The notes beneath the pieces were generated by a model, which was not told where the DNA came from, made no database searches, and saw only the letters and a list, made by a program, of their open reading frames with translations. This document shows, one piece after another, positions 48,013 through 64,000 of a DNA stretch of 64,000 nt. Within the stretch, counting starts at the first letter, position 1; each line of letters starts with the position of its first letter. The stretch comes from Deltaproteobacteria bacterium (GTDB lineage Bacteria; Myxococcota_A; UBA9160; PR03). The stretch is taken from the NCBI GenBank assembly GCA_035063765.1, contig JAPSFT010000011.1, forward strand, positions 64,854-128,853. Reading direction: 5' to 3'. The position numbers were made by a program, and so were the translations under genes.

Positions 48013-49359
48013 CTACCGTCGCCCACCACGGGCCCTTAGCTCAGCGGTCAGAGCACCCGGCTCATAACCGGTGTCGTCCCTGGTTCGAATCCAGGAGGGC
48101 CCACCCGTAACACCGCGTAGTTTCTTGAGTTCAATCCTCGGACCCTTGTCGCCAGGTTGTCGCCAACCCGGCTTCGGCGGTCGAAGCACCTCGACGAGTG
48201 CATTGTCGGCGAGACGCGCGTAGCGGCGCGTCGACTGGATCGACGCGTGGCCGAGGAAGCGCTGCAGGTGCCGCTCCGGAACGCCGCGGCGGATCGCGTC
48301 GGTCGCCATCGTGTGCTTCGTGCCTTCGTAGAGCGAGACGTGCGGGAGGTCGGCTGCCTCCAGCGCTGCGGCCCAGACGCGCTGGAGCGCCTTGTGCGGC
48401 CACATCCGGCCGGTGCGTGGGTTGGGGAATAGGGGCTTTCTAGAGAAGCGGCCCGCCGGGTCGACGTGCCGATCGATCCAACCGGCGAGCTCCCGGCTGA
48501 CCGGCAGCCGTTTCGGCTTTCCGGTTTTCGTGCCGCGGATCTCGGCGCCGACGGACTTCGACTCGGCGGCCTTGTCGACGAAGAGCCAGCCGTCCCGGTA
48601 GTCCGCGACCGTGAGCGCCCGCGCCTCGCCGGGCCGCAGCCCGAGATGCGCGAGCGCGAGGAAGATCCCGCGATCCGCGTCCGGGATGTGCGCCACCGCC
48701 GCGTCCTGATCCGTGATCGAGAGGATCCGCGGCTCGTGCTCCTCGACGCGCACGGGCGGCACGCGTGGCGCCTTCGGAATCTCGCCGCGCAGCTCCAGCC
48801 AGCGCAGGAACGAGCGCATGTAGCCGAGGAAGTTCCGCCGCGACTTCGGGCTCTGCTTGCGGTCCGCGAGCCAGAGGCTCCAGTCCTCAAGTGTCCCGTA
48901 GGTCACCTCGTAGATCGAGATGCGGTCGAAGAACGAGAAGTGCCCGCCGGGAGCCGCAAGCCGCTCGAGCTCCCGCACGAAGTTCGGTGAAAGCGAGCCG
49001 GCAGCCATCTCGCGGCGGCGCAGCTCGAGCCAGCGCGCGAGCCAGGTCGGCACGAGGTTGGTCGGTGAGCCGGTCGGCTGGTAGCGCGCCAGCACCACCT
49101 CGACCGACACCCCCTCGGCGACCTCGTCGCGGATCCGGTCGAGCAACCGCTGCGCCGTCGCCTCGTCCGTGATGCGGATCCCGCGGTTCGACCACACCCG
49201 CCCGACCGGCCGGAAGTCCAGGTAGAACTCCCGCACACCGTCCTCGCCGCGCGAGCGGCTCCGGATGCGCCCGAGCTTCGCCACGAGGGCCCAGCGTACC
49301 GCAGGGGCGGCAGCGGCCGGCGAGGCGAGGAGCCGGGCGAGGGAAGCCACGTCAGGCAT
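48013..49359 (-). CDS. int: Tyrosine recombinase / phage-type integrase
   Basis: In frame 48013..49461 I start at ATG 49359 (MPDVASLARLL...). Catalytic-domain blocks are LALAHLGLRPGEARAL (Arg), GTKHTMATDAIRRG and FLGHASIQSTRRYARL (His...Tyr). The ORF continues antisense through the whole tRNA gene before its stop. Confidence 0.85.
   Translation of the reverse strand: MPDVASLARLLASPAAAAPAVRWALVAKLGRIRSRSRGEDGVREFYLDFRPVGRVWSNRGIRITDEATAQRLLDRIRDEVAEGVSVEVVLARYQPTGSPTNLVPTWLARWLELRRREMAAGSLSPNFVRELERLAAPGGHFSFFDRISIYEVTYGTLEDWSLWLADRKQSPKSRRNFLGYMRSFLRWLELRGEIPKAPRVPPVRVEEHEPRILSITDQDAAVAHIPDADRGIFLALAHLGLRPGEARALTVADYRDGWLFVDKAAESKSVGAEIRGTKTGKPKRLPVSRELAGWIDRHVDPAGRFSRKPLFPNPRTGRMWPHKALQRVWAAALEAADLPHVSLYEGTKHTMATDAIRRGVPERHLQRFLGHASIQSTRRYARLADNALVEVLRPPKPGWRQPGDKGPRIELKKLRGVTGGPSWIRTRDDTGYEPGALTAELRARGGRR
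48030..48103 (+). tRNA. tRNA with CAT anticodon (elongator Met, or Ile2 if lysidine-modified)
   Basis: Manual cloverleaf: acceptor GGGCCCT/AGGGCCC, D arm GCTC-AGCGGTCA-GAGC, anticodon arm CCCGG-CTCATAA-CCGGT, T arm CCTGG-TTCGAAT-CCAGG, discriminator A. CCA is not encoded. By my fold the variable region is 6 nt, which needs checking. Confidence 0.85.
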
Positions 49360-50429: not shown

Positions 50430-51365
50430 ATGCAGGCATACGTCGGAATCACGGACTACGAGTGGTACCAGCTTCTCGCGAGTCGTCCGCAGCTCGACGA
50501 CGTGAACTTCTGGCAGCCGGGCGGGACCCGAGTCTTCCGGGCTCTCCAAGCGGGCGAGCTCTTCCTCTTCAAGCTCCATGCTCCGCGTCACTCGGTGGTT
50601 GGCGGTGGCTTCTTCGCCCATGCCACCAGGTTGCCCGTGAGCCTCGCATGGGAGGCGTTCGGCGAGTCGAACGGAGCGAGTTCTTTGGCACAGATGCGGG
50701 CGCGCATCGAGCAGTACCGGCGCGCCCCAGCTCAGCCCCACGAGGACTACACGATCGGCTGCATCCTCCTGGAGCAGCCCTTCTTTCTGCCCGAGGAGTT
50801 GTGGATCCCCGCTCCGCCCGACTGGCACCCGAACATCGTCCAAGGCAAGACGTACGACCTGAACGCTGAGCCGGGACGATCGTTGTGGCTCCAGGTAGAG
50901 GAGAGGATCCGAGTGCAGAGCAGCGGACAGGGATGGCCCGCACAGTGGCGTGAGCCCGGCCATCCCCGGTACGGCGAGCCCACCCTGGTGCGCCCGCGCC
51001 TCGGCCAGGGAAGCTTCCGGATTCTCGTAACCGACGCGTACGACCGGCGCTGCGCCGTCACAGGAGAGCGCGTCCTACCGGTCCTCCAGGCAGCCCACAT
51101 TCGGCCCTACGCCGCGGGAGGCGAGCACCGCGTCGACAATGGCCTGCTCCTCCGAAGCGACCTCCACACCCTCTTCGACCGGGGCTACGTGACCGTCACT
51201 CCGGAGCTTCGGCTCGAGGTGAGCCGTCGCATTCGCGAGGATTTCGAGAACGGCCGGCACTATTACGCGCTGCACGGAGAGCGGGTTCGGGAGCCCGTGG
51301 AGGAAGGTCAACGGCCCGCTGCCGAGTTCCTGCGCTGGCACAACGAGCAAGCATTTCTCGAGTGA
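50430..51365 (+). CDS. HNH nuclease (HNH_2-like) with N-terminal beta-barrel-like domain; candidate type IV restriction enzyme
   Basis: In frame 49389..51365 I start at ATG 50430 (MQAYVGITDYEWYQLL...). The C-terminal HNH block is RCAVTGERVLPVLQAAHIRPYAAGGEHRVDNGLLLRSDLHTLFDRGYVTV. Confidence 0.7.
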   Translation: MQAYVGITDYEWYQLLASRPQLDDVNFWQPGGTRVFRALQAGELFLFKLHAPRHSVVGGGFFAHATRLPVSLAWEAFGESNGASSLAQMRARIEQYRRAPAQPHEDYTIGCILLEQPFFLPEELWIPAPPDWHPNIVQGKTYDLNAEPGRSLWLQVEERIRVQSSGQGWPAQWREPGHPRYGEPTLVRPRLGQGSFRILVTDAYDRRCAVTGERVLPVLQAAHIRPYAAGGEHRVDNGLLLRSDLHTLFDRGYVTVTPELRLEVSRRIREDFENGRHYYALHGERVREPVEEGQRPAAEFLRWHNEQAFLE

Positions 51366-51667
51366 ACCCGAGCGGGTCCGGATCGCTCCTCTCTGAAGGG
51401 GGTCAACTTTCATGTCGTTAGGGGGTCAGTTTTCGTTGTCGCGCCGACCTTGCTTGGCCGATTTCGCGTTGCCTTCGACCTCTGCCGCCTCGCCCGCGCA
51501 GGCTGGACGGCAACCGCCTTGCGTGATTGAGACTCAAGTTACCGAATTTACTGATGAAAGTTGGAAGCATTTGAGTTTCGGCTCCCTTCCCTCAGACGAC
51601 TTCACGGGGCACCGAAAAGAAGGATGTACTAACGTTTGCTAACGACATATCTCATCGTGAGGAATGC

Positions 51668-52258
51668 ATGGGCAATGTCACCGAGTACCTGAGCGAGTGG
51701 GGGGTGGAGATCGACGAGGGCAAGTTCCTCGCGTTGCTCCGCGAGACGCTTGAGCAGATCGCTGGCAAGGATCTCTGGGCGGAGCCGGAACAGGAGCTAC
51801 CGCCCGAAGAGGTCGCTGTGCTTCACAGCGGCGGCTTCTCGACACGGCGCCAATCGCTCGGCAGCGATGACCCGCTGTTTCGCGGGGCTCTCGACTTCAG
51901 TGCGCTGATCGCAACGGCGGTTTCGACCAAGGAGGCGGCGAAGCTGCTCGACGTGGACCCGAGCCGCATCCGCCAGCGCTTGCTCGCTCCTCATCCAAGC
52001 CTGTATGGCGTGAAGTGGCGCGGCGAGTGGCTACTGCCGCGTTTTCAGTTCACGGGTAGGAAGGAGGTTCCTGGTCTTGACGAGGTCGTGCCCCGCCTCG
52101 ATCCGGGCCTGAATCCCGTCACGGTTGCTCGTTGGTTCCTATCGCCCAGTCCTGACCTTGTTGCAGAGAAGAGCGGCGACGAGCCGATGAGCCCGCGGGA
52201 GTGGCTGCTAGCCGGCCACTCGCCGATGGAGGTCGCTCGTCTGGCCGAAGGGCTCTGA
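51668..52258 (+). CDS. Xre/MbcA/ParS-like antitoxin (HTH plus DUF2384-like C-terminus)
   Basis: 196-aa ORF. It has the HTH-like segment VSTKEAAKLLDVDPSRIRQRLL and the C-terminal MSPREWLLAGHSPMEVARLAEGL, typical of antitoxins partnered with RES toxins. Its position immediately upstream of a RES gene supports the call. Confidence 0.65.
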   Translation: MGNVTEYLSEWGVEIDEGKFLALLRETLEQIAGKDLWAEPEQELPPEEVAVLHSGGFSTRRQSLGSDDPLFRGALDFSALIATAVSTKEAAKLLDVDPSRIRQRLLAPHPSLYGVKWRGEWLLPRFQFTGRKEVPGLDEVVPRLDPGLNPVTVARWFLSPSPDLVAEKSGDEPMSPREWLLAGHSPMEVARLAEGL

Positions 52259-52896
52259 GCGCGCGCTTGGCCAAGCTTCCTGAACCCCCGCCTCCTGCCG
52301 AGCTCGTCGCTCGCACAGTGCCCGCGGTCAAGAGCCTGCCCGCAGGAAGCCTGATCTGGAGAGTCTACTTCCGCGGCGGTCCCCATCCCGCAAGCTGGAA
52401 CCAGTTTCGATCCTACGGCCCCGTCCCTTCGGGCCGGTTCGATCATCATGATCCTCCGCCCCACCACCAAGAGAGAGCCATCCTCTATGCCGCGATCCAC
52501 GGCCCGACGTGCCTCGCGGAGGTCTTCCAGGAGTCACGGGTCATCGACCGCCACCACAACGATCCATGGTTGGCCGCGTTCGCCACGGAGCGCGCACTCG
52601 ATCTGCTGGATCTGTCCGGCACCTGGCCGACGCGCGCTGGTGCATCCATGGCCATCAACAGTGGGCCGCGGCCTCGTGCTCAGCGTTGGTCACGCGCGAT
52701 CTACGATGCGTACCCGGAGATTGATGGAATCTACTATCCGTCGTCGATGAGCGGAAACCAGCCTGCTGTCGCCCTCTTCGAGCGTGCGCTTGGAGCGATA
52801 CCGAAGCAGCCGCGCCTGAACAGAGCGCTTGCTGAACCGCCGCTCTTGATCCCGATCACCAACGCCGCTGCGCAATTCGGCTATCGGGTTGTTTGA
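52201..52896 (+). CDS. RES domain toxin (NAD+-targeting toxin family)
   Basis: The R-E-S triad context is SGRFDHH (R), LYAAIHGPTCLAEVFQE (E) and IDGIYYPSSMSG (S). The start is uncertain: the track ATG 52201 overlaps the antitoxin by 58 nt, and TTG 52267 just after the antitoxin stop is an alternative. Confidence 0.75.
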   Translation: MAASRPLADGGRSSGRRALSARLAKLPEPPPPAELVARTVPAVKSLPAGSLIWRVYFRGGPHPASWNQFRSYGPVPSGRFDHHDPPPHHQERAILYAAIHGPTCLAEVFQESRVIDRHHNDPWLAAFATERALDLLDLSGTWPTRAGASMAINSGPRPRAQRWSRAIYDAYPEIDGIYYPSSMSGNQPAVALFERALGAIPKQPRLNRALAEPPLLIPITNAAAQFGYRVV

Positions 52897-52921
52897 ACGG
52901 TTCTCTGGAGTTGAACCAGTC

Positions 52922-54016
52922 ATGCCCATTCAACACGCGATCTGGAAAGTTGGAGAACGACCCTCCGCGCTCTCTGCCAGCCGTCTGGCAAGCGAACAGC
53001 AGCTCGAGGAAATGATTGCGCGCGACCCGAGCATCCTCTCGAGCCAGTGGATGCTCATCGGCCGGCAAGAGGGCACGAGCCATGGCGGACGAATCGATCT
53101 GTTGGCAATTGCTCCCGACGCTTCCTTGGTCTTGATCGAACTCAAGCGCGACCGTACACCGCGTGAGATCATCGCCCAATCCCTCGACTACGCGTCGTGG
53201 GTGGAGCAGCTCGGCGCGGAGAAGATTGCACAGATCTATCAGCGGTTTTCGAACGGCGGAAAGTTGGACGAGGCGTTTCGGGAGCGGTTCGGCATCGAGC
53301 TGGATGAGGAGACCCTCAACCAATCGCACCAGATCATCATCGTCGCCGCAGAGCTCGATGCCGCGACGGAGCGCATCATCGGATACCTCAACGCTCGGGA
53401 CATCGCGATCAACGTCGTCTTCTTCCAGGTTTTCCAGCATGGTGACGAGCAGCTGCTGAGTCGGGCGTGGCTCATTGACCCCGGAGAGACGCAGGTGAAC
53501 GTCGCGAGCACGACCAAGAGCAAGGGCGAGAAGGAGCCCTGGAACGGTGAGTACTACGTCTCTTATGGCCCCACGTCGTCGCGCTCTTGGGATGAGGCGC
53601 GCCAGCACGGTTTCATCAGCGCGGGTGGTGGAAGCTGGTACAGCCAGACGCTGAAGCTGCTTTCTCCGGGAGACCGCGTGTGGGTCAAGATCCCCAAGAC
53701 CGGCTACGTGGGGGTTGGGCGAGTCAAGGAGCCGGTGCGTTCGGTGAACGACTTCAAGGTCGAGACACCGTCCGGCGAACGATCGGTACTGGAAGTGCTG
53801 CGGAACGCTGAACGCTACCGGCGAAGCGCCGATGACCCGGAGAAGGCGGAGTACTTCGTCCGGGTGCAATGGCTCGATACCGTCCCCGAGGCTTCGGCAG
53901 TGAACGAGGTGGGCCTCTTCGGGAACCAGAACACCGTATGCCAGCCTACGACACCCAAGTGGCGGCACACAGTTGAACGACTGAAGACGTATTTCCCGAA
54001 ATGGGACGCTAGTTGA
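52922..54016 (+). CDS. NucS/DUF91-like PD-(D/E)xK nuclease fused to an uncharacterised C-terminal domain
   Basis: In frame 52889..54016 I start at ATG 52922, with GGAG upstream. The N-terminal half GRIDLLAIAPDASLVLIELKRDRTPREIIAQSLDYASWV matches the DUF91/NucS nuclease signature (D...ExK). The C-terminal ~170 aa (WNGEYYVSYGP...SPGDRVWVKIPKTGYVGVGRV) is unassigned. Confidence 0.65.
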   Translation: MPIQHAIWKVGERPSALSASRLASEQQLEEMIARDPSILSSQWMLIGRQEGTSHGGRIDLLAIAPDASLVLIELKRDRTPREIIAQSLDYASWVEQLGAEKIAQIYQRFSNGGKLDEAFRERFGIELDEETLNQSHQIIIVAAELDAATERIIGYLNARDIAINVVFFQVFQHGDEQLLSRAWLIDPGETQVNVASTTKSKGEKEPWNGEYYVSYGPTSSRSWDEARQHGFISAGGGSWYSQTLKLLSPGDRVWVKIPKTGYVGVGRVKEPVRSVNDFKVETPSGERSVLEVLRNAERYRRSADDPEKAEYFVRVQWLDTVPEASAVNEVGLFGNQNTVCQPTTPKWRHTVERLKTYFPKWDAS

Positions 54017-54044
54017 CGATGCTGTCGTCTGAGAAGGTCCTCGA

Positions 54045-55571
54045 GTGAAGCGGGTACTTCTCGCATGGTTGGGTCGAACCGACCTCGACTGCGCACGTGC
54101 GAATCGCCCGGCATCGCCGGGGCCGACCGCGAGCGTGATCGAAGCGCGCACCTTTGACGAACTGGTGCTGCTCTCGAACTATCCCCGCGAGGAGTCAGCG
54201 GACTATGTGCGTTGGCTTCAGGAGCGGGGAAGCCCGCGAGTGCATCTGCTGACATCGGACCTGGGCGATCCGACGGACTACAGCGGCATCCACGACGCAG
54301 TTCTTCACTCCATGGAGTTCGTGGAACGAGAGCTCGGACCCGATGCCGAGCTCGCGATCCACATCAGCCCAGGAACACCCGCTATGCAAGCGGTCTGGGT
54401 GCTTCTGGCCAAGACCCGCTTCCCCGCTGAGTTGATCCAGTCGCACGAGAAGACGGGCGTCCGGACGGTCTCGATCCCGTTCGATATCTCCGCCGAGTAC
54501 GTGCCGGATGTGTTGCGGCGCACCGACGAGAAGCTCCAACGCCTCAGCGATGGGCTGCCGCCCGAGGCGCCCGAGTTCGATCAGATCATTCGACGGAGCC
54601 CGGCGATGGAACGTGCCGTGGCCCGCGCCCGCCTGGTAGCACCGCGAAACGTTCCTGTGCTGATCGAGGGAGAGTCGGGCACTGGCAAGGAACTCTTCGC
54701 GCGGGCCATTCATGCGTCCAGCCCTAGGTCCTCCGGTCCGTTCGAGGCGGTGAACTGCGGAGCACTTCCTCGCGAGCTCGTGGAGTCCTTGCTGTTCGGG
54801 CACGAAAGGGGGGCGTTCACTGGCGCAACTCAGCAGCACAAGGGCCACTTCGAGGTGGCGAGCGGTGGCACGCTCTTTCTCGATGAAGTCGGTGAACTTC
54901 CGCTGGATGCGCAGGTCAAGCTGCTGAGAGTTCTACAGGAACGACAGGTTCGGCGTATGGGTTCGGATCGCACGATTTCGGTCGATGTGAGGATCATCGC
55001 AGCGACCAACCGGAATCTCCTTGAGGAAGCGGCAGCCGGCCGCTTCCGTGAGGACCTCTATCACCGGCTCGCAGTAGGTGTGATTCGGCTTCCTGCGCTT
55101 CGCGACCGCCAAGGCGATCTCAGCTTGCTGATCGAGCGCCTGCTCGAGCGGATCAACCAGGAGGCGGCCTCCCAGCCGGGCTACGCACACAAGGAACTCT
55201 CTCCTGCCGCAAGAAGTCTTCTGATCGCCCACTCGTGGCCCGGTAACGTGCGAGAACTCCAGAACACGCTGCTACGACTGTCGATTTGGACCTCGGGCCC
55301 GCGGATCGGAGTCGATGACGTCCGAGAGGAGCTCCTGCAAGTCGGGTCTGGATCGAGATCGGACCTGCTCGGCCGGCCGCTCGGAGAGGGGCTGCAAGTT
55401 CGCGATCTCGTGGCAGAATTGGCCCGCCACTACATCGAGCGTGCCCTCCAGGAGGCTGGGGGCAACAAGACGCGAGCTGCCAAGCTACTCGGTATGGCGA
55501 GTTACCAGACCCTCACGGACTGGATGAAGAGATACGGGATCAAGCTGCCCAGGAAGAGGCGGGAAGGGTGA
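54045..55571 (+). CDS. Sigma-54-dependent transcriptional activator with RtcR-like (CARF-type) N-terminal sensor domain
   Basis: 508-aa ORF with a GTG start and GAGAAGG about 8 nt upstream. The N-domain begins [14 protein letters not shown] and contains [30 protein letters not shown]. As I remember it, E. coli RtcR has ...IHITTGTHVAQICWFLLAEARYLPARLIQS. The AAA+ core has [25 protein letters not shown] and FLDEVGEL. The C-terminus is a Fis-type HTH ([25 protein letters not shown]). Confidence 0.85.
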
Positions 55572-55587
55572 CGGCACGGGGATTGCT
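55572..55587 (+). promoter_or_regulatory. Candidate sigma-54 (-24/-12) promoter upstream of hsdR
   Basis: The sequence CGGCACGGGGATTGCT begins one nt after the activator stop codon. Against the consensus TGGCACG-N4-TTGCW, only the first T is replaced. The GG and GC dinucleotides have canonical spacing. The site is about 58 nt upstream of the hsdR GTG (55645), which itself has GGAG 8 nt upstream. Confidence 0.65.
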
Positions 55588-55644
55588 CCAGAGGCTCCGC
55601 GAGCCCCTTATGGCACATCGCATCCGGGGGCCGGAGCCCTATTC

Positions 55645-58600
55645 GTGCCCTTGGACCATCTCCCGCCGAGTCCGTGGAACCCGATACTCCGAGACGGCCG
55701 CGAGGGCCACGTCTTGGTGAAGTCGATCAACTTCGAGTTCCTGCGAGCAAAACGCACCTACCTGGCCGACCTGGGCGGCTTCGCCGAGCAGTACCTCCAT
55801 CCCGATCCCGCGAGTGCACTGATCAAGCTCCGCACCTTCGCGGAGGCGATGACGAACGACCTTTACACCGCATTGGGCCTCCGCCAGCCCTTCGAGGCCG
55901 ACTTCTTCACCCTTCTGGACGGCCAGCCGTTCAAAGACGCTGTTCCTCAGGTGGTGCTGACGAAGATCCACGCCGTCCGAAAGCTTGGGAACAAGGCGGC
56001 CCACGGCGGCGCCGTCAGCTTCGATATGGCGGGGCGTGCCCTCCACGAGGCCTACCACCTCGGCAGCTGGCTTCACCTCGCCGTGGACAAGGGCTCCCAG
56101 AGCGATTGCCCGAAGTTCACGGTGCCTCCCGCTGGCGGTGTTGCAGAGTCGACCCGGGCTGACCTGAAGCGTGAGAAGAAGGCAGCGCTTGAGAAGCTGG
56201 CCGCCCAGGAAGCACAGATGGAGAAGCTCCTCTCGGAGCTTGACGCGGCCCGCGCGAAAGCCGAGTCCGCCGAAAAGTCTGCGCAGGAGCTCCAGCTCAT
56301 CATTCAGTCCGGCCAGCAGGCCGCGAGCGAGCTCTCCTTCAGCGAAGCCGAGACCCGAAAGTTCCTCGTCGAGACCATGCTGGTCGCGGCTGGCTGGGAT
56401 GTCGGAGCCGCGGGCAAGAGCACCACGGACGTCGGCCAGGAGGTGGACGTCGAGCACCAACCGACGGAGACAGGGCACGGCAAGGCGGATTACGTCCTTT
56501 GGGACGACGCCAGCAGGCCCCTTGCCGTTGTCGAAGTCAAGAAGACCTCGATTGAGGCCGCTTTGGGCCGCCACCAGGCCCGCCTCTACGCCGATGGCCT
56601 CGAGCAGATGTACGGCCAGCGTCCGGTGATCTTTTACACGAATGGCTTCGACCTCTACCTGTGGGACGATGCCCAGAACGAGGTCGATCGCAAGATCTAC
56701 GGCTTCTACTCGAAGGACAGCCTCGCCTACCTGCACTTCCAGCGTGCCAGCCGCGTCCCTCTCCACGAGGTACCCATCAGTCGAGAGATTGCAGGACGCC
56801 TGTACCAGGTGGAGGCCGTGAAGCGCGTCGGCGAGCGCTTCGACCAGGGACGCCGCAGGGCGTTGATCGTACAGGCCACAGGCACGGGCAAGACCCGCGT
56901 CGCGGCATCGCTCGCCGATGTCTTGCTGCGAGCCAACCGGGCCAAGCGGATCCTGTTTCTCTGCGACCGCCGCGAGCTTCGCAAACAGGCCCTGAACACC
57001 TTTAAGCAGCTCCTCCCGAACGCCAAGCGGGTATCGGTCACCGCCAAGACCGCCCAGGAGCGCGAGCACCAGATCTACCTGGCCACCTATCCGGCGATGA
57101 GGACCTGCTTTGAGAGCTTCGACGTGGGCTTCTTCGACCTGGTGATCGCCGACGAGTCGCACCGCAGCATCTACAACCGCTACAAGGACCTCTTCGACTA
57201 CTTCGACGCGCTCCAGGTGGGGCTCACGGCCACGCCGGTGCGCTTCATCGACCGCAACACCTATGACCTCTTCGGCTGCGAGGATCAGGACCCCACCGCG
57301 CACTACCCCCTCGATCGCGCCATCGACGAGGGCGTTCTCCTCCCCTTCCGCGTGCGGGCGTATCAGACCGAGTTCCAGCGCAAGGGCATGAAATGGAAGG
57401 AGATGAGCGAGTCCCAGCGGGCTCAGCTCGAGCAGCAGATGGCGAATGCAGAGAGCTTCGACTACGAGGCCGCAGAGCTCGACCGCTACGTCTTCAACAA
57501 GGACACCAACCGCGCGATGCTCCGCAAACTGATGGAGAGCGGCATCCGCGACGCAACCGGCCAAGCGCCCGGCAAGTCCATCGTCTTCGCCCGCAGCCAC
57601 CGCCACGCCATCCTGCTGAAGGAGCTTTTCGACGAGCTCTATCCGCAGTACGGCGGAAGTTTCTGCACCGTGATCGACAACTACGACCCGCGCGCCGAGC
57701 AACTGATCGACGACTTCAAGGGCCAGGGCCAGCACAACGACATCCAGATCGCGATCTCGGTCGACATGCTCGACACCGGCATCGACGTCCCCGAGATCGT
57801 GAACCTGGTCTTCGCGAAGCCCGTCAAGTCCTACGTCAAGTTCTGGCAGATGATCGGGCGCGGAACCCGCAGGTGCGAGAACCTCTTCGGCCCGGGTGAG
57901 CACAAGAAGGAGTTCCTCGTCTTCGACCACTGGGGCAACTTCGAGTTCTTCGGCGAGACCTACGTCGAACCGACGCCGTCGCCTCGCAAGTCGCTGCTGC
58001 ACCAGCTCTTCGAGGCCCGCGTGGAGCTGGCCGAGGCCGCGCTTCACCGGCCTGATCTGCCCACCTTCGAGGCGGTGATCGAGCTCCTGCGCCAGGACAT
58101 CGCGAGCCTCCAGGACACGGGCACCATCGCGGTGCGCGACGCATGGCGGACCCTCAAGAAGGTTGCCGACGCCCAGATCCTCAAGCAGTTCGACCCGGCC
58201 ACCCGGGCGGCCCTCCTACAGGAGGTCGCACCGTTGATGAAGGAGCGCGACATCCGCGGCCACGTCGAGGCCCACGAGTTCGATCTCCTTGTGACGCGCC
58301 TCCAGCGGGCGCAGATCACGGGCTCGAGCGAGCTCCAGGACCTGAAGGGCGACCTGCTGAACGCCCTCGCCCAGCTCAAGATGAACCTCGCTCAGGTAAA
58401 GGCCAAGGCCCAGACCATTGCCCACGTGAAGAGCGTCGCCTTTTGGGCCGAGCCGACCTTCGGCGCGCTGGAGGAGGCCCGGCTCGAGTTGCGGTCCATC
58501 ATGAAGTTGCGCGAGCGCCCTGCGGGTCCGGCCGACTACGCCCAGCTAGTCGATATCGCGGAGGACCTCTCGCTCGTCCGCGACGCCGACTACCCCGTCA

Positions 58601-59133
58601 AGATCGAGGGGCTCGATCAGGTGGGCTACCGCAAGCGCGTCGAGCAGGTGCTGCGCGACCTCGTCGCCAGCAATGGGACGCTGCAGAAGATCAAGGCCGG
58701 CCAGCCTGTGACCTCCCATGACCTCGACGATCTGGTGAGCCTCGTGCTCACCCAGAACCCCGATGTCGATCTCGCCAAGCTCGAGCAGCTCTATCCCAAG
58801 ACCGCGGGGCACCTCGACCTGGCGATCCGCCGTGTCATCGGCCTCGACGCGGATGCCGTCGAGAAGCGCTTCGAAGCGTTCGTCCACCAGCACCAGGCGC
58901 TCAATGCGCGCCAGGTGCGCTTCCTGAGCCTCCTCAAGAGCCTGATCGCGAGCGCCGGCAGCATCGAACTCGAGCGCCTTTACGAGCCGCCCTTCACGAC
59001 GCTCGATCCCGACGGCATCGATGGGCTCTTCGAAGACGAGGCTCAGATCGACGAGCTTCTCGGCCTCATCGCCAGCTTCGAGAATCCCGAACCCATCCCG
59101 GCCAACCCCGGTCCCGAAGGTCTCCATTCATGA
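55645..59133 (+). CDS. hsdR: Type I restriction enzyme R subunit with N-terminal DUF4145-like domain and coiled coil
   Basis: 1162-aa ORF. Its elements are:
- a DUF4145-like block ([17 protein letters not shown])
- a coiled coil (about residues 170-230)
- the PD-(D/E)xK nuclease ([10 protein letters not shown]...LAVVEVKK)
- SF2 motifs [23 protein letters not shown] and QMIGRGTR
- a long helical C-terminal region like the EcoEI-type R C-terminus. Confidence 0.9.
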
Positions 59134-60686
59134 TCACCGGCAAGCTCCGCAGTCAGATCGACAACCTCTGGACCCAGTTCTGGACCGGCGGCATAACAAA
59201 TCCGCTCACGGTCATCGAGCAGATCTCCTTCCTGATGTTCGCCCGCCTGCTCGACATCCGGGAGACGCGCGAAGAGCGCGTCTTCACTCGCAAGCACCGC
59301 GGCGAGGCTTTTCCCGGGAATCTCTTCGGGCCCGACAAGCAGCACCTACGCTGGTCGAAGTTCAAGCACGAGGGCGATGCCGCGCGCATGCTTGCCCTCG
59401 TTCGCGACGAGCTCTTCGCGCACATTCGTGCCGTCGCAGAGAAGCAGGATCGCCTGGGCGAGCACATGAAGGATGCCCAGCTCATCATCTCGAAGCCCAG
59501 TCTGCTCTACGCCGCCGTGAAGCTGATCGATGAGCTGCCGCTGGGCGAGGGCGACACCAAGGGCGATCTCTACGAGTACCTGCTCAGCAAACTCACCACG
59601 GCGGGCATCAACGGCCAGTTCCGCACGCCGCGCCACATCATCGACGTCATGGTGGCAATGGTGGACCCGAAGCCCACTGAGAAGGTGGGGGACCCGGCAG
59701 CCGGCACGGCGGGCTTCCTCGTGCAGACGATGCAGTACCTGCTGCGCAAGTACTCGTCGGCGGAGGGTCAGTTCCCGGCCGAGGGCGAGGACGGGCGGCC
59801 GGTGCTCGGCGACGATGGCAAGTCCGTCATGGTCTACACGGGCGACCTCCTCGAGCCGTACCGCGACCACATCCAGAAGGGGATGTTTTACGGCTTCGAT
59901 TTCGACGTCACGATGCTCCGCATCGCAGCTATGAACCTGATGCTCCACGACGTCGCCAACCCGCACATCTACTATCAGGACACGCTCAGTCGCGGTTTTC
60001 GTGAAACGCGCCCCGAACTCGCCGAGAACCACTTCGACGTCATCCTCGCTAACCCGCCGTTCAAGGGCAGCCTGGACGCCGAGGACATCGACCCAACCCT
60101 CACAGCCAAGATCAAGACCAAGAAGACAGAGCTGCTTTTCCTGGTCCTCATGCTCCGCATGCTGAAGAACCCTGGCGGCCGCGCCGCGGTGATCGTGCCC
60201 GAGGGCGTGCTGTTCGGCAGTTCGAATGCGCACGTTGCGCTTCGACAGATGCTGGTAGAAGAGAACCAGCTAGAGGCGGTGATCTCGCTTCCGTCTGGTG
60301 TGTTCAAGCCCTATGCGGGGGTCTCTACTGCGATCCTGGTCTTCACTCGCGGCGGCGAGACGACTGACGTCTTCTTCTACGACGTGCGCGCAGATGGGTT
60401 CTCCTTAGACGACAAGCGCGAACGCGTTGCAGGCGACGATCTGCCCGACTGCTTGTCGCGATGGCAACAGCGCAATGAGATCGGCCTTGGTGACCGTGCA
60501 GCGCAGTGTTTCTCAGTGATGGCTAACGAGATTCGCTCATCTAGCTACAGGCTTTCGTTCGCCGAATACAAAGCGACGCCCTATGTCGAACCTGACCTAG
60601 ACGACCCGACGGCATTGCTTCAGAGGCTTCGCGACCTTGAACGTGAGACTTCTGCGCGACTCGATGAGCTTGAGGACCTGCTGTGA
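59130..60686 (+). CDS. hsdM: Type I restriction-modification N6-adenine DNA methyltransferase subunit
   Basis: The ATG at 59130 overlaps the hsdR stop (ATGA). It has an HsdM N-domain ([30 protein letters not shown]), SAM binding ([13 protein letters not shown]) and the catalytic [10 protein letters not shown]. Confidence 0.95.
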
Positions 60687-61870
60687 GCACCGCCACCATC
60701 GTGCCGAGATGGCGCCCCCTGGAGGAGGTGGCGCCGACTGCATCTGAGCGTGTGCATCCGTTCACGGGTGAGAGGCGATACGTAGCAACGGGAGGGATTG
60801 ACGGGGGCGTCATCACGGACTCTGACATGGTCACGCACAGCATGAGGCCGACTCGAGCGGATCTGGCTGTAAGACCTGGCGACGTCATCTGGGCCAAAAT
60901 GAGGGCAACTACGAAGGTCTTTCACGTCGGCAAAGAGGATGCGTCGACCATCTTCTCAACCGGCTTCGTGGCGAGCCGCCCTCGGAAGGATCTAGTGCAC
61001 TCCCGCTACCTGTATCACTTTTTGAGGTCACCACTCTTTCAGCATAGGAAAGATCAGCTTTGCACGGGCTCAACGCAGAAGGCGATCACCAAGACCGGAC
61101 AAGCGAAGCTTCAATTCCCCTGGCTTCCGCTCGAGAATCAAGAGAGGGCAGCAGCGATTCTCGACCACGCGGAGGCGATTGAATCCAAAAAAAGACTCGC
61201 CATTGTGCTTGGGACCCAACTTGGGGACGCGTTGTTCCGCGAAGCGATCGCATCAGACGCAGAGGATCTCGAGATTGGCGAAATGCTACAGCGTGGAATT
61301 CTGATGCTTCATAAGGATGGCAACTTTGGAAGTGCCTACCCTCGCGCGAGAGACTTCACAGACGAAGGTGTTCCTTTTCTTACTGCAGCGAGCGTCACAG
61401 ACGAGGGGAAGCTTGAGGAGCGATCCGTTCAACGCTTGAGAGAAGAGAAGGCACAAGCTCTCCGATTCGGTTGGATCGAGAAGGGAGATGTTCTCCTCTC
61501 TCACAACGCAACGGTCGGCCGCGTCCTCTTGTATCGGGGAGAGTACAAACGCGCTTTGATCGGAACATCGCTGACTGCATTCCGACCCGATCCTAAGCGA
61601 CTGTTGCCCACCTTCCTGTTCGGTGCGTTGCGATCTTCGAGGTTCCAGGACGCTCTGAAAGCCAAGATGGCGCAAACAACAAGGAACCAGGTCCCCATAA
61701 CTGCGCAACGGCGATTGCGTCTTCCGTATGCACCAATGGGTGCTCAAGTTCGTTATGCGGAGTGCGCGAAGTCGGCAATGAGTCTCCAGCAACAGCTGGC
61801 GATTGCTCGCTTGGCCGCAGATGGCTTGCTGGCCGCATTGTCGAATCAAGCGTTCCGGGGTGCGCTCTGA
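60683..61870 (+). CDS. hsdS: Type I restriction-modification specificity subunit
   Basis: The GTG at 60683 overlaps the hsdM stop (GTGA). The 395-aa product has two variable target-recognition halves separated by helical conserved regions ([20 protein letters not shown]; [28 protein letters not shown]). This gene has the lowest G+C of the island by eye. Confidence 0.85.
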
Positions 61871-63474
61871 TGATCACCGCTCTGGAAGTCGACAACTTCA
61901 AGGGCATCGGCCGTCCGATCCGCATCGAGCTGCGCCCTATCACGCTCCTCTTCGGCCGGAACAGTGCGGGCAAGAGCACAATCCTGCACGCGCTCCACTA
62001 CGCGCACGAGATCCTGAGTCGACGGAACCTCGACCCGGACGCCACTCATCACGGAGGTGATGTCGTCGATCTGGGCGGGTTCCGGAGCTTCGTGCACGCC
62101 CAGGACACGAGCCGTGTGGTTCGCCTGCGCTTTGAACTCGACTTGACCAAGCATGAGCTCCCCGAGCTTCCAATGCTCGAGTCGGCTGCCGATGCCGACG
62201 AAGCCGAGGAGCTGCAGAGTCTGGAGCTCTTCGATGAAGGGCTGAGCACCGAGATTAGGTCCGGCTGGGTTGAGCTCCAGGTGCGGTGGAGTGGTGCGCG
62301 CAAGGCTCCGACCCTGCGCACCTATGAAGTGGGGATGAATGGCGAGGTGATCGGCCGGATCGAATCCAATGACGACGGTGCACAGGTGGATCTGTTTCCG
62401 AACCTGGCGCATCCCCTATTCGCGTACGACGGCCGGATCCCGGAGGAGGAGCGGCCGAGTCGCGAGGAGGTGGCATCGCGGTGGATCAGCGACACGCCTG
62501 GATCTGAGGCCGAGTACTGGCGCGGCCATCGCCTGCCTGTGGGTGGACTCGCGCGATCGAGCCTGCCCCGCTGGGGAGAGCTCCTCGCGCTTGACTACGA
62601 CGAGCAAGATGATTTCTACGCCTACCCGTTTCGGGAGTTTCGCTATCGCGTCTCGACGCTGATGGTGGGCCTGGGGCAGCTCCTCAAAGATGAAGTGGCA
62701 CAACTCCGGTACGTTGGGCCTATGCGTGACGTGCTCGCTCGCACGTACGCGTCTCCCCGCTACCTAGAGCCGCACCGCTGGGCGAGCGGGCTCGGTGCCT
62801 GGGATCGGATGCATACCCTTGGGCCTGAGTTCGTCGCGGGAGTGAGCGATTGGCTTTCCGACTCCGAGAAGCTCGACACGGGCTACGGCCTGGCGCTGAG
62901 GTCCTTCATCGAGCTTCCAGAGGACAGCGCACTCTGGCTCTCGATCGAGCGCGGCACATTCCTCGACATGTGGGACGATCTCGCCGCCGAGTTTCAGTCA
63001 CTCGAGAAGAGAACAGCGTTCCGCTTGGTGGACCCCACGTCCAGGATCGCCGTCCATCCCGCAGACGTCGGGGTGGGCGTCTCACAGGTCGTGCCGGTCG
63101 TGGTCGCTGCTCTCGATCCTGATCGGCCGAGCCTGACCGCAATCGAACAGCCTGAGCTCCACATTCATCCCAAGGTGCAGGTGGGGCTCGGTGATCTCTT
63201 CGCGAGCCAAATCGGAGACGGTACCCGCCGCTTCCTGCTCGAGACGCACAGCGAGCACCTGATGCTGCGATTGCTGCGGCGAATCGAGGAGACCCATTCC
63301 GGTGATCTACCGCCCGGTGCGCCAGCGCTTCGGCCTGACCAAGTGGCCGTCGTCTTCATCGAGCAGATCGAGGGGGAGGTCAAGGCGACCCAACTGCGCA
63401 TCGACGAATCGGGGGAGTTCGTCGATCGCTGGCCCCATGGCTTCTTCGAGGAGCGAGCGGAAGAGCTGCTCTGA
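61870..63474 (+). CDS. ABC/OLD-like AAA ATPase (AAA_15/21-type, DUF3696-like C-terminus) linked to the R-M operon
   Basis: The ATG at 61870 overlaps the hsdS stop (TGATG). It has Walker A LLFGRNSAGKST, then IEQPELHIHP and FLLETHSEHL (Walker B/H-loop style of OLD/ABC ATPases). The C-terminal IDESGEFVDRWPHGFFEERAEEL follows. No nuclease domain was recognised. Confidence 0.8.
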   Translation: MITALEVDNFKGIGRPIRIELRPITLLFGRNSAGKSTILHALHYAHEILSRRNLDPDATHHGGDVVDLGGFRSFVHAQDTSRVVRLRFELDLTKHELPELPMLESAADADEAEELQSLELFDEGLSTEIRSGWVELQVRWSGARKAPTLRTYEVGMNGEVIGRIESNDDGAQVDLFPNLAHPLFAYDGRIPEEERPSREEVASRWISDTPGSEAEYWRGHRLPVGGLARSSLPRWGELLALDYDEQDDFYAYPFREFRYRVSTLMVGLGQLLKDEVAQLRYVGPMRDVLARTYASPRYLEPHRWASGLGAWDRMHTLGPEFVAGVSDWLSDSEKLDTGYGLALRSFIELPEDSALWLSIERGTFLDMWDDLAAEFQSLEKRTAFRLVDPTSRIAVHPADVGVGVSQVVPVVVAALDPDRPSLTAIEQPELHIHPKVQVGLGDLFASQIGDGTRRFLLETHSEHLMLRLLRRIEETHSGDLPPGAPALRPDQVAVVFIEQIEGEVKATQLRIDESGEFVDRWPHGFFEERAEELL

Positions 63475-64000
63475 TGCTGTACGAGTTTGCGATCGAGCCG
63501 GAGTTGCTGACGAGCTGGGACAAGGCCCGCACGACCCTCAACCTCATGGGCTTCCAGCATGCGCGGGCCATCTCCGCCTACCCCTCAAGGAAGCGCTGGA
63601 AGAAGATGATCTTCGAGGCCTGTCGGAAGGCCGGCTGCGCGGATCGGGAGTTTGCGCGCATCCGCGAAAAGGTCCAGCAGTCCGACGCGAAGCTCGTCTG
63701 GGCAGGGTCGCCGGAAGAGTACGACGGATCGCTAAAGCCACAGGACGAGTGCTGGATTCGAAACGCCACTGATCGCCAGATCAAGAGGAAGGCCTTCCAT
63801 GCGATTCTGGCGACTCGAAACCCCAGCGGTCATCCCGACGTCGTGCTCGAAGCGGATGTAGACGAGTCTCACGCAAAGCTTGGAGTCGCTCGCGAGCTCC
63901 CCGTCCTGCGGCAACCGAAACCATTGGCTGGCCACATTGAGAAGCTCGTGCGCAACAGTCGTGTGCTCCTTCTCATCGACCCCCACTTCGATCCCTCGCT
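63474..64000 (+). CDS. Hypothetical protein, 5' part only (runs off window)
   Basis: The ATG at 63474 overlaps the ATPase stop (TGATG). My manual translation is open for all 175 codons to the window end (MLYEFAIEPELLTSWDKARTTLNLMGFQHARAISAYPSRKRWKKMIFEACRKAGC...LLLIDPHFDPS). It is absent from the ORF track only because no stop is reached. No family was recognised. Confidence 0.5.
   Translation, partial: MLYEFAIEPELLTSWDKARTTLNLMGFQHARAISAYPSRKRWKKMIFEACRKAGCADREFARIREKVQQSDAKLVWAGSPEEYDGSLKPQDECWIRNATDRQIKRKAFHAILATRNPSGHPDVVLEADVDESHAKLGVARELPVLRQPKPLAGHIEKLVRNSRVLLLIDPHFDPS

Follow-up and report, generated by a model that had tools for sequence, protein, structure and literature searches.

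What does an RtcR-like transcriptional activator control when neither rtcA nor rtcB lies beside it? The question is raised by the last 10 kb of a 64,000-nucleotide (nt) stretch of DNA (assembly GCA_035063765.1, contig JAPSFT010000011.1, positions 64,854 to 128,853 of the forward strand; here, the window), where the gene for an enhancer-binding protein is followed at once by a sigma-54 promoter and then by type I restriction-modification (R-M) genes and two further genes. A preliminary description of the window, made from its letters alone, had proposed that a CARF-type sensor gates this restriction operon. Our follow-up confirms the feature as real and well conserved; the locus newly joins an association that has been on record since 2014. 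We read it as a self-contained regulatory cassette, a CARF sigma-54 activator with an abutting promoter, that gates R-M genes together with an ATPase/effector pair, and we put the probability of this reading at roughly two in three (about 0.65).

The activator, its promoter and the operon

The genes and the promoter concerned are the following.

54045..55571, plus strand: RtcR-like enhancer-binding protein of 508 amino acids (aa), with a GTG start and a GAAGG ribosome-binding site (Pfam, PADLOC, NCBIfam, AlphaFold/Foldseek)
55572..55587, plus strand: sigma-54 promoter CGGCACGGGGATTGCT, with GG at 55573-74 and GC at 55585-86 and 11/12 matches to TGGCACG-N4-TTGCW
55717..59133, plus strand: hsdR, type IB-like restriction subunit with N-terminal DUF4145, HSDR_N, ResIII/helicase and EcoEI_R_C (Pfam)
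59130..60686, plus strand: hsdM, N6-adenine methyltransferase subunit (Pfam N6_Mtase, 201 bits, and HsdM_N; PADLOC MTase_I, 550 bits)
60683..61870, plus strand: hsdS, specificity subunit with two target-recognition domains (Pfam Methylase_S in two stretches; PADLOC Specificity_I, 171 bits)
61870..63474, plus strand: OLD-ABC type ATPase of 534 aa, NsnB-like, with C-terminal DUF3696 (Pfam AAA_15, AAA_21 and DUF3696, the last at 26.7 bits against a cutoff of 22)
63474..64000, plus strand: first 175 codons of the gene for a 311-aa protein (P0208), a putative NsnC-like effector

The activator consists of a CARF domain (about residues 1-145), a linker, an AAA+ sigma-54 activation domain carrying the GAFTGA motif (at 54810), and a Fis-type helix-turn-helix (HTH). 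The AAA+ core and the HTH had been read from the translation in the preliminary description, and Pfam recovers both (Sigma54_activat, 234 bits; AAA_lid_14; HTH_8, 34 bits). The likeness of the N-terminal domain to RtcR and CARF, for which profile searches and a structure prediction had been suggested, was likewise borne out. Residues 2-136 match Pfam RtcR (PF06956) at 25.8 bits, above the gathering score of 23.1. The PADLOC model RtcR_PspF2--CARF_AAA_HTH (PDLC01995) aligns over its whole length (profile 1-481 of 481) with residues 2-500 at 654 bits (E = 4e-197), and the best full-length NCBIfam match is RtcR (NF038308), at 358.7 bits and below the equivalog cutoff of 650. Cas_Csm6_CARF and PADLOC CARF models gave weak sequence matches to the N-domain.

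Because no solved structure of a relative emerged when the PDB was searched by sequence profile for the N-domain (the sole matches were phosducin-like proteins at E ~0.04), a fold search was used instead. An AlphaFold2 model of residues 1-185, built with 22 homologues, has a predicted local distance difference test score (pLDDT) of 82, exceeding 90 for about residues 1-145. Foldseek matched this model to 65 PDB structures at E <= 0.001, and the best 50 of the 65 are all CARF proteins, among them Csm6 (6tug, E = 3e-7), Card1, Can2, Cam1, Cad1 and ring nucleases. By four routes (Pfam, PADLOC, NCBIfam and AlphaFold/Foldseek), the last of them through a predicted structure, the N-domain is RtcR/CARF-like. 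Across 22-31 diverse sequences its core is invariant at W8, G10, D13, G26-P27, H106-x-SPGT, W118, K123 and R125. Escherichia coli RtcR aligns with the activator at 35% identity over 380 aa (E = 6e-56), and the E. coli block IHITTGTHVAQICWFLLAEARYLPARLIQS, which the preliminary description quoted, proved exact and falls within this alignment as claimed. The activator belongs to the RtcR_PspF2 family, which is paralogous to RtcR but distinct from it.

The N-domain family is moderately large, with 1,015 cluster representatives (50% identity, E <= 1e-10) among 1.84 billion and relatives in at least 558 GTDB species genomes. Proteins of ~150-180 aa that consist of the N-domain only are numerous (P0075, P0078, P0080, P0091 and others). 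Some of them lie on contigs longer than 140 kb, so that, instead of being fragments left by assembly, they may be true free-standing CARF proteins or come from split genes.

The activator gene stops at TGA 55569-55571, and the promoter begins at the very next base, 55572, where a near-consensus site had been noted. Beyond it lies a full type I gene set: an HsdR with helicase and nuclease, an N6-methyltransferase HsdM and an HsdS with two target-recognition domains. HsdR scores 936 bits with PADLOC REase_I (PDLC03047), 323 bits with NCBIfam PRK11448 and 252 bits with the EcoAI family. Its most likely start, judged from sequence comparison, is GTG 55717 and not 55645, since orthologues begin MKSxNFEFL and PADLOC aligned from residue 25 of the longer open reading frame. 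The translational coupling of all five downstream genes is as previously described, with overlapping junctions ATGA between hsdR and hsdM (59130), GTGA between hsdM and hsdS (60683), TGATG between hsdS and the ATPase gene (61868) and TGATG between the ATPase gene and the fifth gene (63472). The fifth gene runs off the window; in identical public contigs it encodes 311 aa, which places its end by length at ~64409. We note that the predicted leader before hsdR (55588-55716) is unusually long, at ~120 nt, where most of the related loci displayed have roughly 25-60 nt. Within it lies an inverted repeat, GGCTCCG...CGGAGCC, to which the closest relative (L007) has an apparently similar one by eye (GGAGCC...GGCTCC).

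The last two genes had been taken as an extension of the R-M operon; they form instead a separable Menshen-like module of NsnB/NsnC type, which is often the sole cargo of the activator. The best PADLOC matches of the ATPase are PDC-M55A (150 bits), NsnB (129 bits) and HEC-03B (110 bits). PARIS/AriA, Gabija and Septu were considered as identities for it and rejected, as they gave weaker matches than these three. The 311-aa protein matched nothing in Pfam, PADLOC (NsnC models included) or NCBIfam. Its AlphaFold2 model has a pLDDT of 81, mostly 83-95 in the C-terminal half, and matches structures of the PLD superfamily, namely PLD3 (8v06, E = 2.5e-4), a Streptomyces PLD, SauUSI and Tdp1, at TM-scores of only ~0.3. 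The family keeps the motifs LIDPHFDP and FHxRYxLTDRGG, the latter HKD-like (H-x-R-x4-D, with residues H253, R255 and D260), and the C-terminal half is predicted to adopt a PLD-like fold.

Conservation of promoter, cargo and an embedded element

Conservation was examined in 80 genomic loci that carry the N-domain, from Acidobacteriota, Myxococcota, Desulfobacterota, Planctomycetota, Nitrospirota, Gemmatimonadota, Gammaproteobacteria and others. The promoter census covered the 71 loci with a complete activator gene, and the cargo census the 65 loci in which 1.5 kb or more of sequence follows the activator gene. A promoter was counted when at least 10/12 positions of TGGCACG-N4-TTGCW (TGGCACGNNNNTTGCW) matched between -30 and +45 nt of the activator stop. 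Such a site is present in 76% (54/71) of the loci, at an offset of exactly 0 in 36 of them and spanning the stop codon in a few. In the rest of the same loci the motif occurs at 6.6e-5 matches per position, or ~0.005 expected per region. After filtering to <80% identity, 30/43 loci retain the promoter, and several of the apparent exceptions have TTGA in place of TTGC at -12. Compared across loci, the evidence for the promoter is very strong.

The cargo is conserved as well. Type I hsdR lies directly downstream in 27/65 loci, 17 of which are orthologous to the window hsdR (at least 45% identity). In 23/65, mostly Vicinamibacterales, the ATPase gene comes first, accompanied by the 311-aa gene in 21 of these 23. 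Other cargos include a BREX-like pair of DUF4007 and an Eco57I-type methylase (PglX-type), methyltransferase-AAA fusions and TPR proteins. Loci without co-directional cargo mostly have no promoter either. Genes upstream of the activator vary between loci, that for PDC-S11 in the window included. Because promoter and cargo are conserved and the upstream genes are not, the conserved unit is activator gene, promoter and cargo, in that order. The adjacency of activator and hsdR, together with the GG-N10-GC element between them, had been put forward for checking in related islands, and both recur there in many phyla. The statement that the window holds neither rtcA nor rtcB also stands: tblastn with E. 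coli RtcA and RtcB found no homologue in it, and with the same queries rtcA was found in none of the 80 loci and rtcB within 10 kb in one (1/80), not adjacent.

Three related loci depart from the common arrangement. In L094 (6965-7010), a pair of ATPase and 310-aa genes stands without an adjacent activator, yet 45 nt upstream of the pair lies a sigma-54 promoter with 11/12 matches, TGGCACCCGTTTTGCT, which suggests activation in trans. L097 (1-9990) holds three tandem pairs of ATPase and 311-aa-like genes, a transposase and a 115-aa C-terminal remnant of the activator followed by TGA-TGGCACGCTCGTTGCG; here the cassette seems to have been duplicated and to have decayed. In L095 (6309-7136), a DUF3800 gene sits between hsdS and the ATPase gene, giving the order activator, hsdR, hsdM, hsdS, DUF3800, ATPase, 297-aa protein.

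As nothing upstream of the activator gene is conserved, cis elements were sought inside it, and one candidate emerged.

55197..55222, plus strand: quasi-palindromic element CTCTCTCCTGCCGCAAGAAGTCTTCT inside the activator gene, a candidate enhancer (upstream activating sequence) ~350 nt upstream of the promoter

Synonymous conservation was measured as pairwise codon identity relative to the level that the codon usage of each gene predicts. This corrected test took the place of a third-codon-position information scan, which is confounded by codon degeneracy. It shows a sharp peak at residues 381-397, where conservation is 2.1 times that expected; the mean of this ratio over the whole gene is 1.11 (standard deviation, 0.15). 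Atypical A/T-ending codons (TCT, GCA, AGA, CTT) are kept there even in genomes of 65-72% GC. The family consensus is cTTTCT-N6-GCAAGAAA-N-CTTCT, i.e., TTTCT-N9-AGAAA, which scores on both strands, and in related loci the start of its alignment and the end of the stop codon are 354-381 nt apart. All promoter-bearing nonredundant loci keep the element (30/30), and the loci in which it has decayed have no promoter (4/4); Fisher's test of the association gives p = 0.006, with a threshold set post hoc and phylogeny not controlled. The element is compatible with binding by the HTH of the activator itself, and we regard it as a candidate site. A second peak of synonymous conservation, at residues 183-192, yielded no convincing nucleotide motif. 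The E. coli rtcR-rtcBA intergenic region contains no TTTCT-N9-AGAAA element and thus lends no cross-support to the enhancer assignment. Near the promoter (55250-55660; 320 nt upstream), inverted repeats were limited to weak pairs with 77% complementarity.

Proposed signal gating and its rivals

The conserved position of the promoter, the defence cargo and the lack of Rtc linkage together make signal-gated defence a well-supported inference. By analogy with RtcR, the CARF domain would hold the AAA+ ring inactive until a nucleic-acid-derived ligand binds and relieves the autoinhibition. Candidate ligands are RNA ends with a 2',3'-cyclic phosphate or an oligonucleotide made upon infection or RNA damage. 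The activated hexamer, probably acting from the enhancer within its own coding sequence, would remodel sigma-54 RNA polymerase at the abutting promoter. One polycistronic mRNA would then carry hsdR-hsdM-hsdS and the Menshen-like pair of ABC-ATPase and PLD-fold effector. We infer that the promoter is used, that the activator drives it, that a ligand of the kind named gates it and that the outcome is defence.

Several points weigh against this reading. The literature yielded no transcript, binding or phenotype data for any family member, and roughly a quarter of the related loci have no recognisable promoter and/or co-directional cargo. The distance of the embedded element from the promoter (about 350-380 nt) exceeds the usual enhancer range of 80-200 nt, and the constraint on it could instead stem from the mRNA or its translation in the stretch that encodes the AAA+ lid. 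RtcR-type CARF domains mostly do not have the usual basic residue after strand 4, according to the passages of Makarova et al. 2014 (PMC4012209) that treat them. The presence of rpoN could be assessed in the 64-kb window only, where a six-frame motif scan found no RpoN-box motif. In favour of the reading, sigma-54 is generally present in Deltaproteobacteria, the label of this metagenome-assembled genome (MAG). Finally, a strictly inducible R-M system would run into self-restriction if induction found the chromosome unmethylated, so that basal, activator-independent expression of hsdMS may be needed; no activator-independent promoter for it was found. Tolerating induction would require either such basal expression or the post-translational restraint of HsdR known from type I systems.

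This last difficulty feeds the alternative that survives best. Activator and promoter may drive the operon without being gated by infection: the CARF domain would be a vestige that serves oligomerisation or the binding of a partner, or a reporter of general physiological or translation stress, and expression would be effectively constitutive or growth-phase dependent, keeping the chromosome methylated. The logic of self-restriction speaks against an off-state of hsdM and hsdS. According to a passage of PMC9650030, moreover, the CARF domain of E. coli RtcR binds the RtcA and RtcB proteins besides RNA; no such partners are encoded here, and Pfam and PADLOC show no signal-generating enzyme (cyclase or HEPN RNase) in the operon. 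Set against this, the strong family-wide conservation of the CARF core motifs argues for a maintained ligand pocket, and the family occurs almost exclusively with defence cargo. We consider this alternative unlikely, if the strongest of those weighed.

A second alternative, which we hold to be distinctly improbable, is that read-through from upstream island genes or unrecognised sigma-70-type promoters is the main source of transcription and that the sigma-54 promoter contributes little or is silent in this host. The genes of the island are co-directional from 50430 onward, and just 28 nt separate the end of the PDC-S11 gene from the start of the activator gene. A consensus scan of 53900-64000 found no sigma-70-like promoter (0 versus 1.0 expected), although such a scan captures the promoters of high-GC Deltaproteobacteria poorly, and a scan of the same interval found no plus-strand terminator. 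The sigma-54 promoter is conserved across loci while the upstream genes are not, and it is kept even at the pairs in L094 and L097 that have no intact activator gene upstream. That the activator is instead the genuine RtcR of a distant rtcBA and stands beside hsdR incidentally is hardly credible: RtcR is indeed its best-scoring named family in NCBIfam and Pfam, but the score falls far short of the equivalog cutoff (358.7 against 650 bits), the gene is on a mobile island, dozens of loci have the promoter in a fixed position at the stop codon, rtcB and rtcA are unlinked in the 80 loci, and the passages of Makarova et al. 2014 (PMC4012209) on this family recognise it as distinct from RtcR.

R-M systems are for the most part regarded as constitutive. 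If signal-gated defence is the correct reading, a sensor-gated R-M system raises the questions of how self-restriction is avoided when the system is induced and which infection signal a CARF protein outside CRISPR reads. The locus and the features of its family offer a compact test system for a decade-old prediction, with the set place of the promoter at the stop codon, a candidate enhancer within the gene and minimal three-gene versions (activator, ATPase and PLD-like protein). The same features may yield a portable, ligand-inducible sigma-54 expression cassette.

Island setting and comparison with known systems

The activator operon is part of a compact defence island, on an integrase-bearing integrative element adjoining tRNA-Met. 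The other features of the island are as follows.

48030..48105, plus strand: tRNA-Met (ARAGORN), left edge of the low-GC island
48013..49359, minus strand: tyrosine integrase of the island (Pfam Phage_integrase, 53 bits), also called in identical contigs L004-L006
49441-49426, minus strand: second sigma-54-like -24/-12 element TGGCACCGCACTTGCT, 11/12, intergenic, ~20-35 nt before the candidate ATGs of the integrase
50430..51365, plus strand: HNH_2 endonuclease-like gene, island cargo (Pfam HNH_2, 47 bits; PADLOC HNH, 68.6 bits)
51668..52896, plus strand: putative antitoxin (196 aa) overlapping the gene of a RES-domain toxin (52201-52896; Pfam RES, 52 bits), a pair called in L004
52889..54016, plus strand: PDC-S11 defence-candidate gene with a NucS_C-like nuclease domain (PADLOC PDC-S11, 539.5 bits; Pfam NucS_C, 23 bits)

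The island stands out as a segment of ~63% GC, compared with ~75% elsewhere, from ~49 kb to the end of the window (the last 15 kb). All of its genes except the integrase point rightward. The tRNA-Met is the probable integration site; a comparison of its region with the 190-nt tail after the last gene found no att repeat of 10 nt or longer. The putative antitoxin had no family match.

The preliminary description found no sigma-54 promoter other than the one facing the restriction operon, and the element before the integrase corrects it on that point. In the window alone, two sigma-54 matches compare with 0.32 expected, and two or more occurred in 5/100 shuffles, which is modest evidence. The second site may have arisen by chance, or else integrase and defence operon may share their regulation. 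A tentative extension of the cassette reading, which we think possible but rather unlikely, is that the activator gene is a portable plug-in unit with its own enhancer and a promoter fused to its stop codon, and that in this island the integrase, too, may be driven by this activator, from the site at 49441-49426. Cargo inserted behind such a unit would become CARF-gated, and induction of defence would be coupled to excision or transfer of the island.

The identical activator protein is encoded on 45 contigs from many public sequencing runs, and the window was matched at contig ends where this was checked. In NCBI records the flanking RpoD leads to a "Deltaproteobacteria bacterium" MAG, and the island proteins are also found in a "Chloroflexi bacterium CFX6" MAG. 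The occurrence of the activator under both labels reflects either a binning error or a very recent transfer of the island. Among the retrieved contigs, from separate sequencing runs, that reach past the stop of the 311-aa gene, 7/8 end 190 nt beyond it and the other (L092) ends at 192 nt (L001, 15259-15448; L087-L092). The shared end points to a repeat or a strain-variable junction at this position.

Comparison with described systems begins with the one that gave the activator its name. Like E. coli and Salmonella RtcR-rtcBA, the locus combines CARF, an NtrC-type AAA+ domain and an HTH with a consensus sigma-54 promoter (TGGCACGACGGTTGCA for E. coli rtcBA), and in the literature the RtcR-rtcBA system shows CARF-mediated autoinhibition. 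It differs in that the E. coli activator is divergent from its target, whereas here activator and cargo are co-directional with the promoter at the stop codon, and in that the cargo is DNA restriction and an ATPase/effector pair on a mobile island, not an RNA cyclase and ligase. The R-M genes resemble type IB systems (EcoAI/EcoEI family), having an HsdR with ResIII/helicase and EcoEI_R_C, an HsdM and an HsdS with two target-recognition domains. Unlike those systems, the genes here follow the order R-M-S as one coupled unit behind a sigma-54 promoter, and HsdR has an N-terminal DUF4145 extension and scores below the NCBIfam equivalog cutoffs.

The last two genes recall Menshen (NsnABC, PMC12065111), in which the effector NsnC is predicted to be held by its N-domain in DUF3696 of NsnB, the C-terminal nucleases of NsnC are polymorphic and include a PLD-like class, and type I R-M is often a neighbour. 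The ATPase is of the OLD-ABC type with C-terminal DUF3696, as NsnB is, and the predicted PLD-like C-terminal fold of the 311-aa protein may correspond to the PB-PLD1 class of NsnC effectors. Unlike Menshen, the module stands behind a sigma-54 activator, its 311-aa protein has no PADLOC NsnC match, and Pfam and PADLOC find no NsnA (ParB/DUF262) domain in any gene of 50430-64000. Because the NsnA gene is missing, we call the pair a Menshen-like module of NsnB/NsnC type and not Menshen.

A further comparison is with superoperons that carry type II/III-A CoCoNuTs. Bell et al. 2024 (PMC11090510) described RtcR homologues at the head of superoperons, including HsdR/M/S, upstream of CoCoNuTs and proposed RNA pieces that bear a 2',3'-cyclic phosphate as the trigger. 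The shared feature is an RtcR-like CARF gene that stands 5' of a run of co-directional genes, HsdR/M/S possibly among them; the operon here differs in ending with the ATPase and 311-aa pair. No CoCoNuT genes (CnuB/C/H) were seen in the window or in the 190 nt past the last gene in identical contigs. None were recognised within ~9 kb downstream in 43 nonredundant loci, by tblastn with window proteins and annotation of 10/30 unlabelled open reading frames and no dedicated CnuB/C/H profile search. Elsewhere in the literature, a preprint of 2025 goes no further than to annotate RtcR genes within a defence island of Pseudomonas, and a mention of CARF in a Myxococcus xanthus review was set aside, since it concerns the unrelated CarF protein.

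The nearest relatives are the RtcR_PspF-type activators. The preliminary description had implied that R-M under CARF/sigma-54 control was new, yet passages of Makarova et al. 2014 (PMC4012209) state that RtcR-like CARF activators are "often associated with R-M systems" and predict sigma-54 activation of the downstream genes by RNA with a 2',3'-cyclic phosphate or a phage nucleotide, and superoperons with HsdR/M/S appear in Bell et al. 2024 (PMC11090510). The names of the PADLOC models RtcR_PspF1 and RtcR_PspF2 (PDLC01994, PDLC01995) reflect this R-M-associated family. As far as the passages of PMC4012209 describe it, the window locus agrees with it in domain architecture, R-M neighbours, absence of rtcBA linkage and predicted sigma-54 control by an infection-derived ligand; nothing essential sets the locus apart, and it is a member. 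What it and its relatives add to the 2014 account, as far as those passages show, is a promoter locked to the stop codon, a candidate enhancer embedded in the activator gene, an NsnBC-like pair as principal cargo and a possible sigma-54 site before the integrase.

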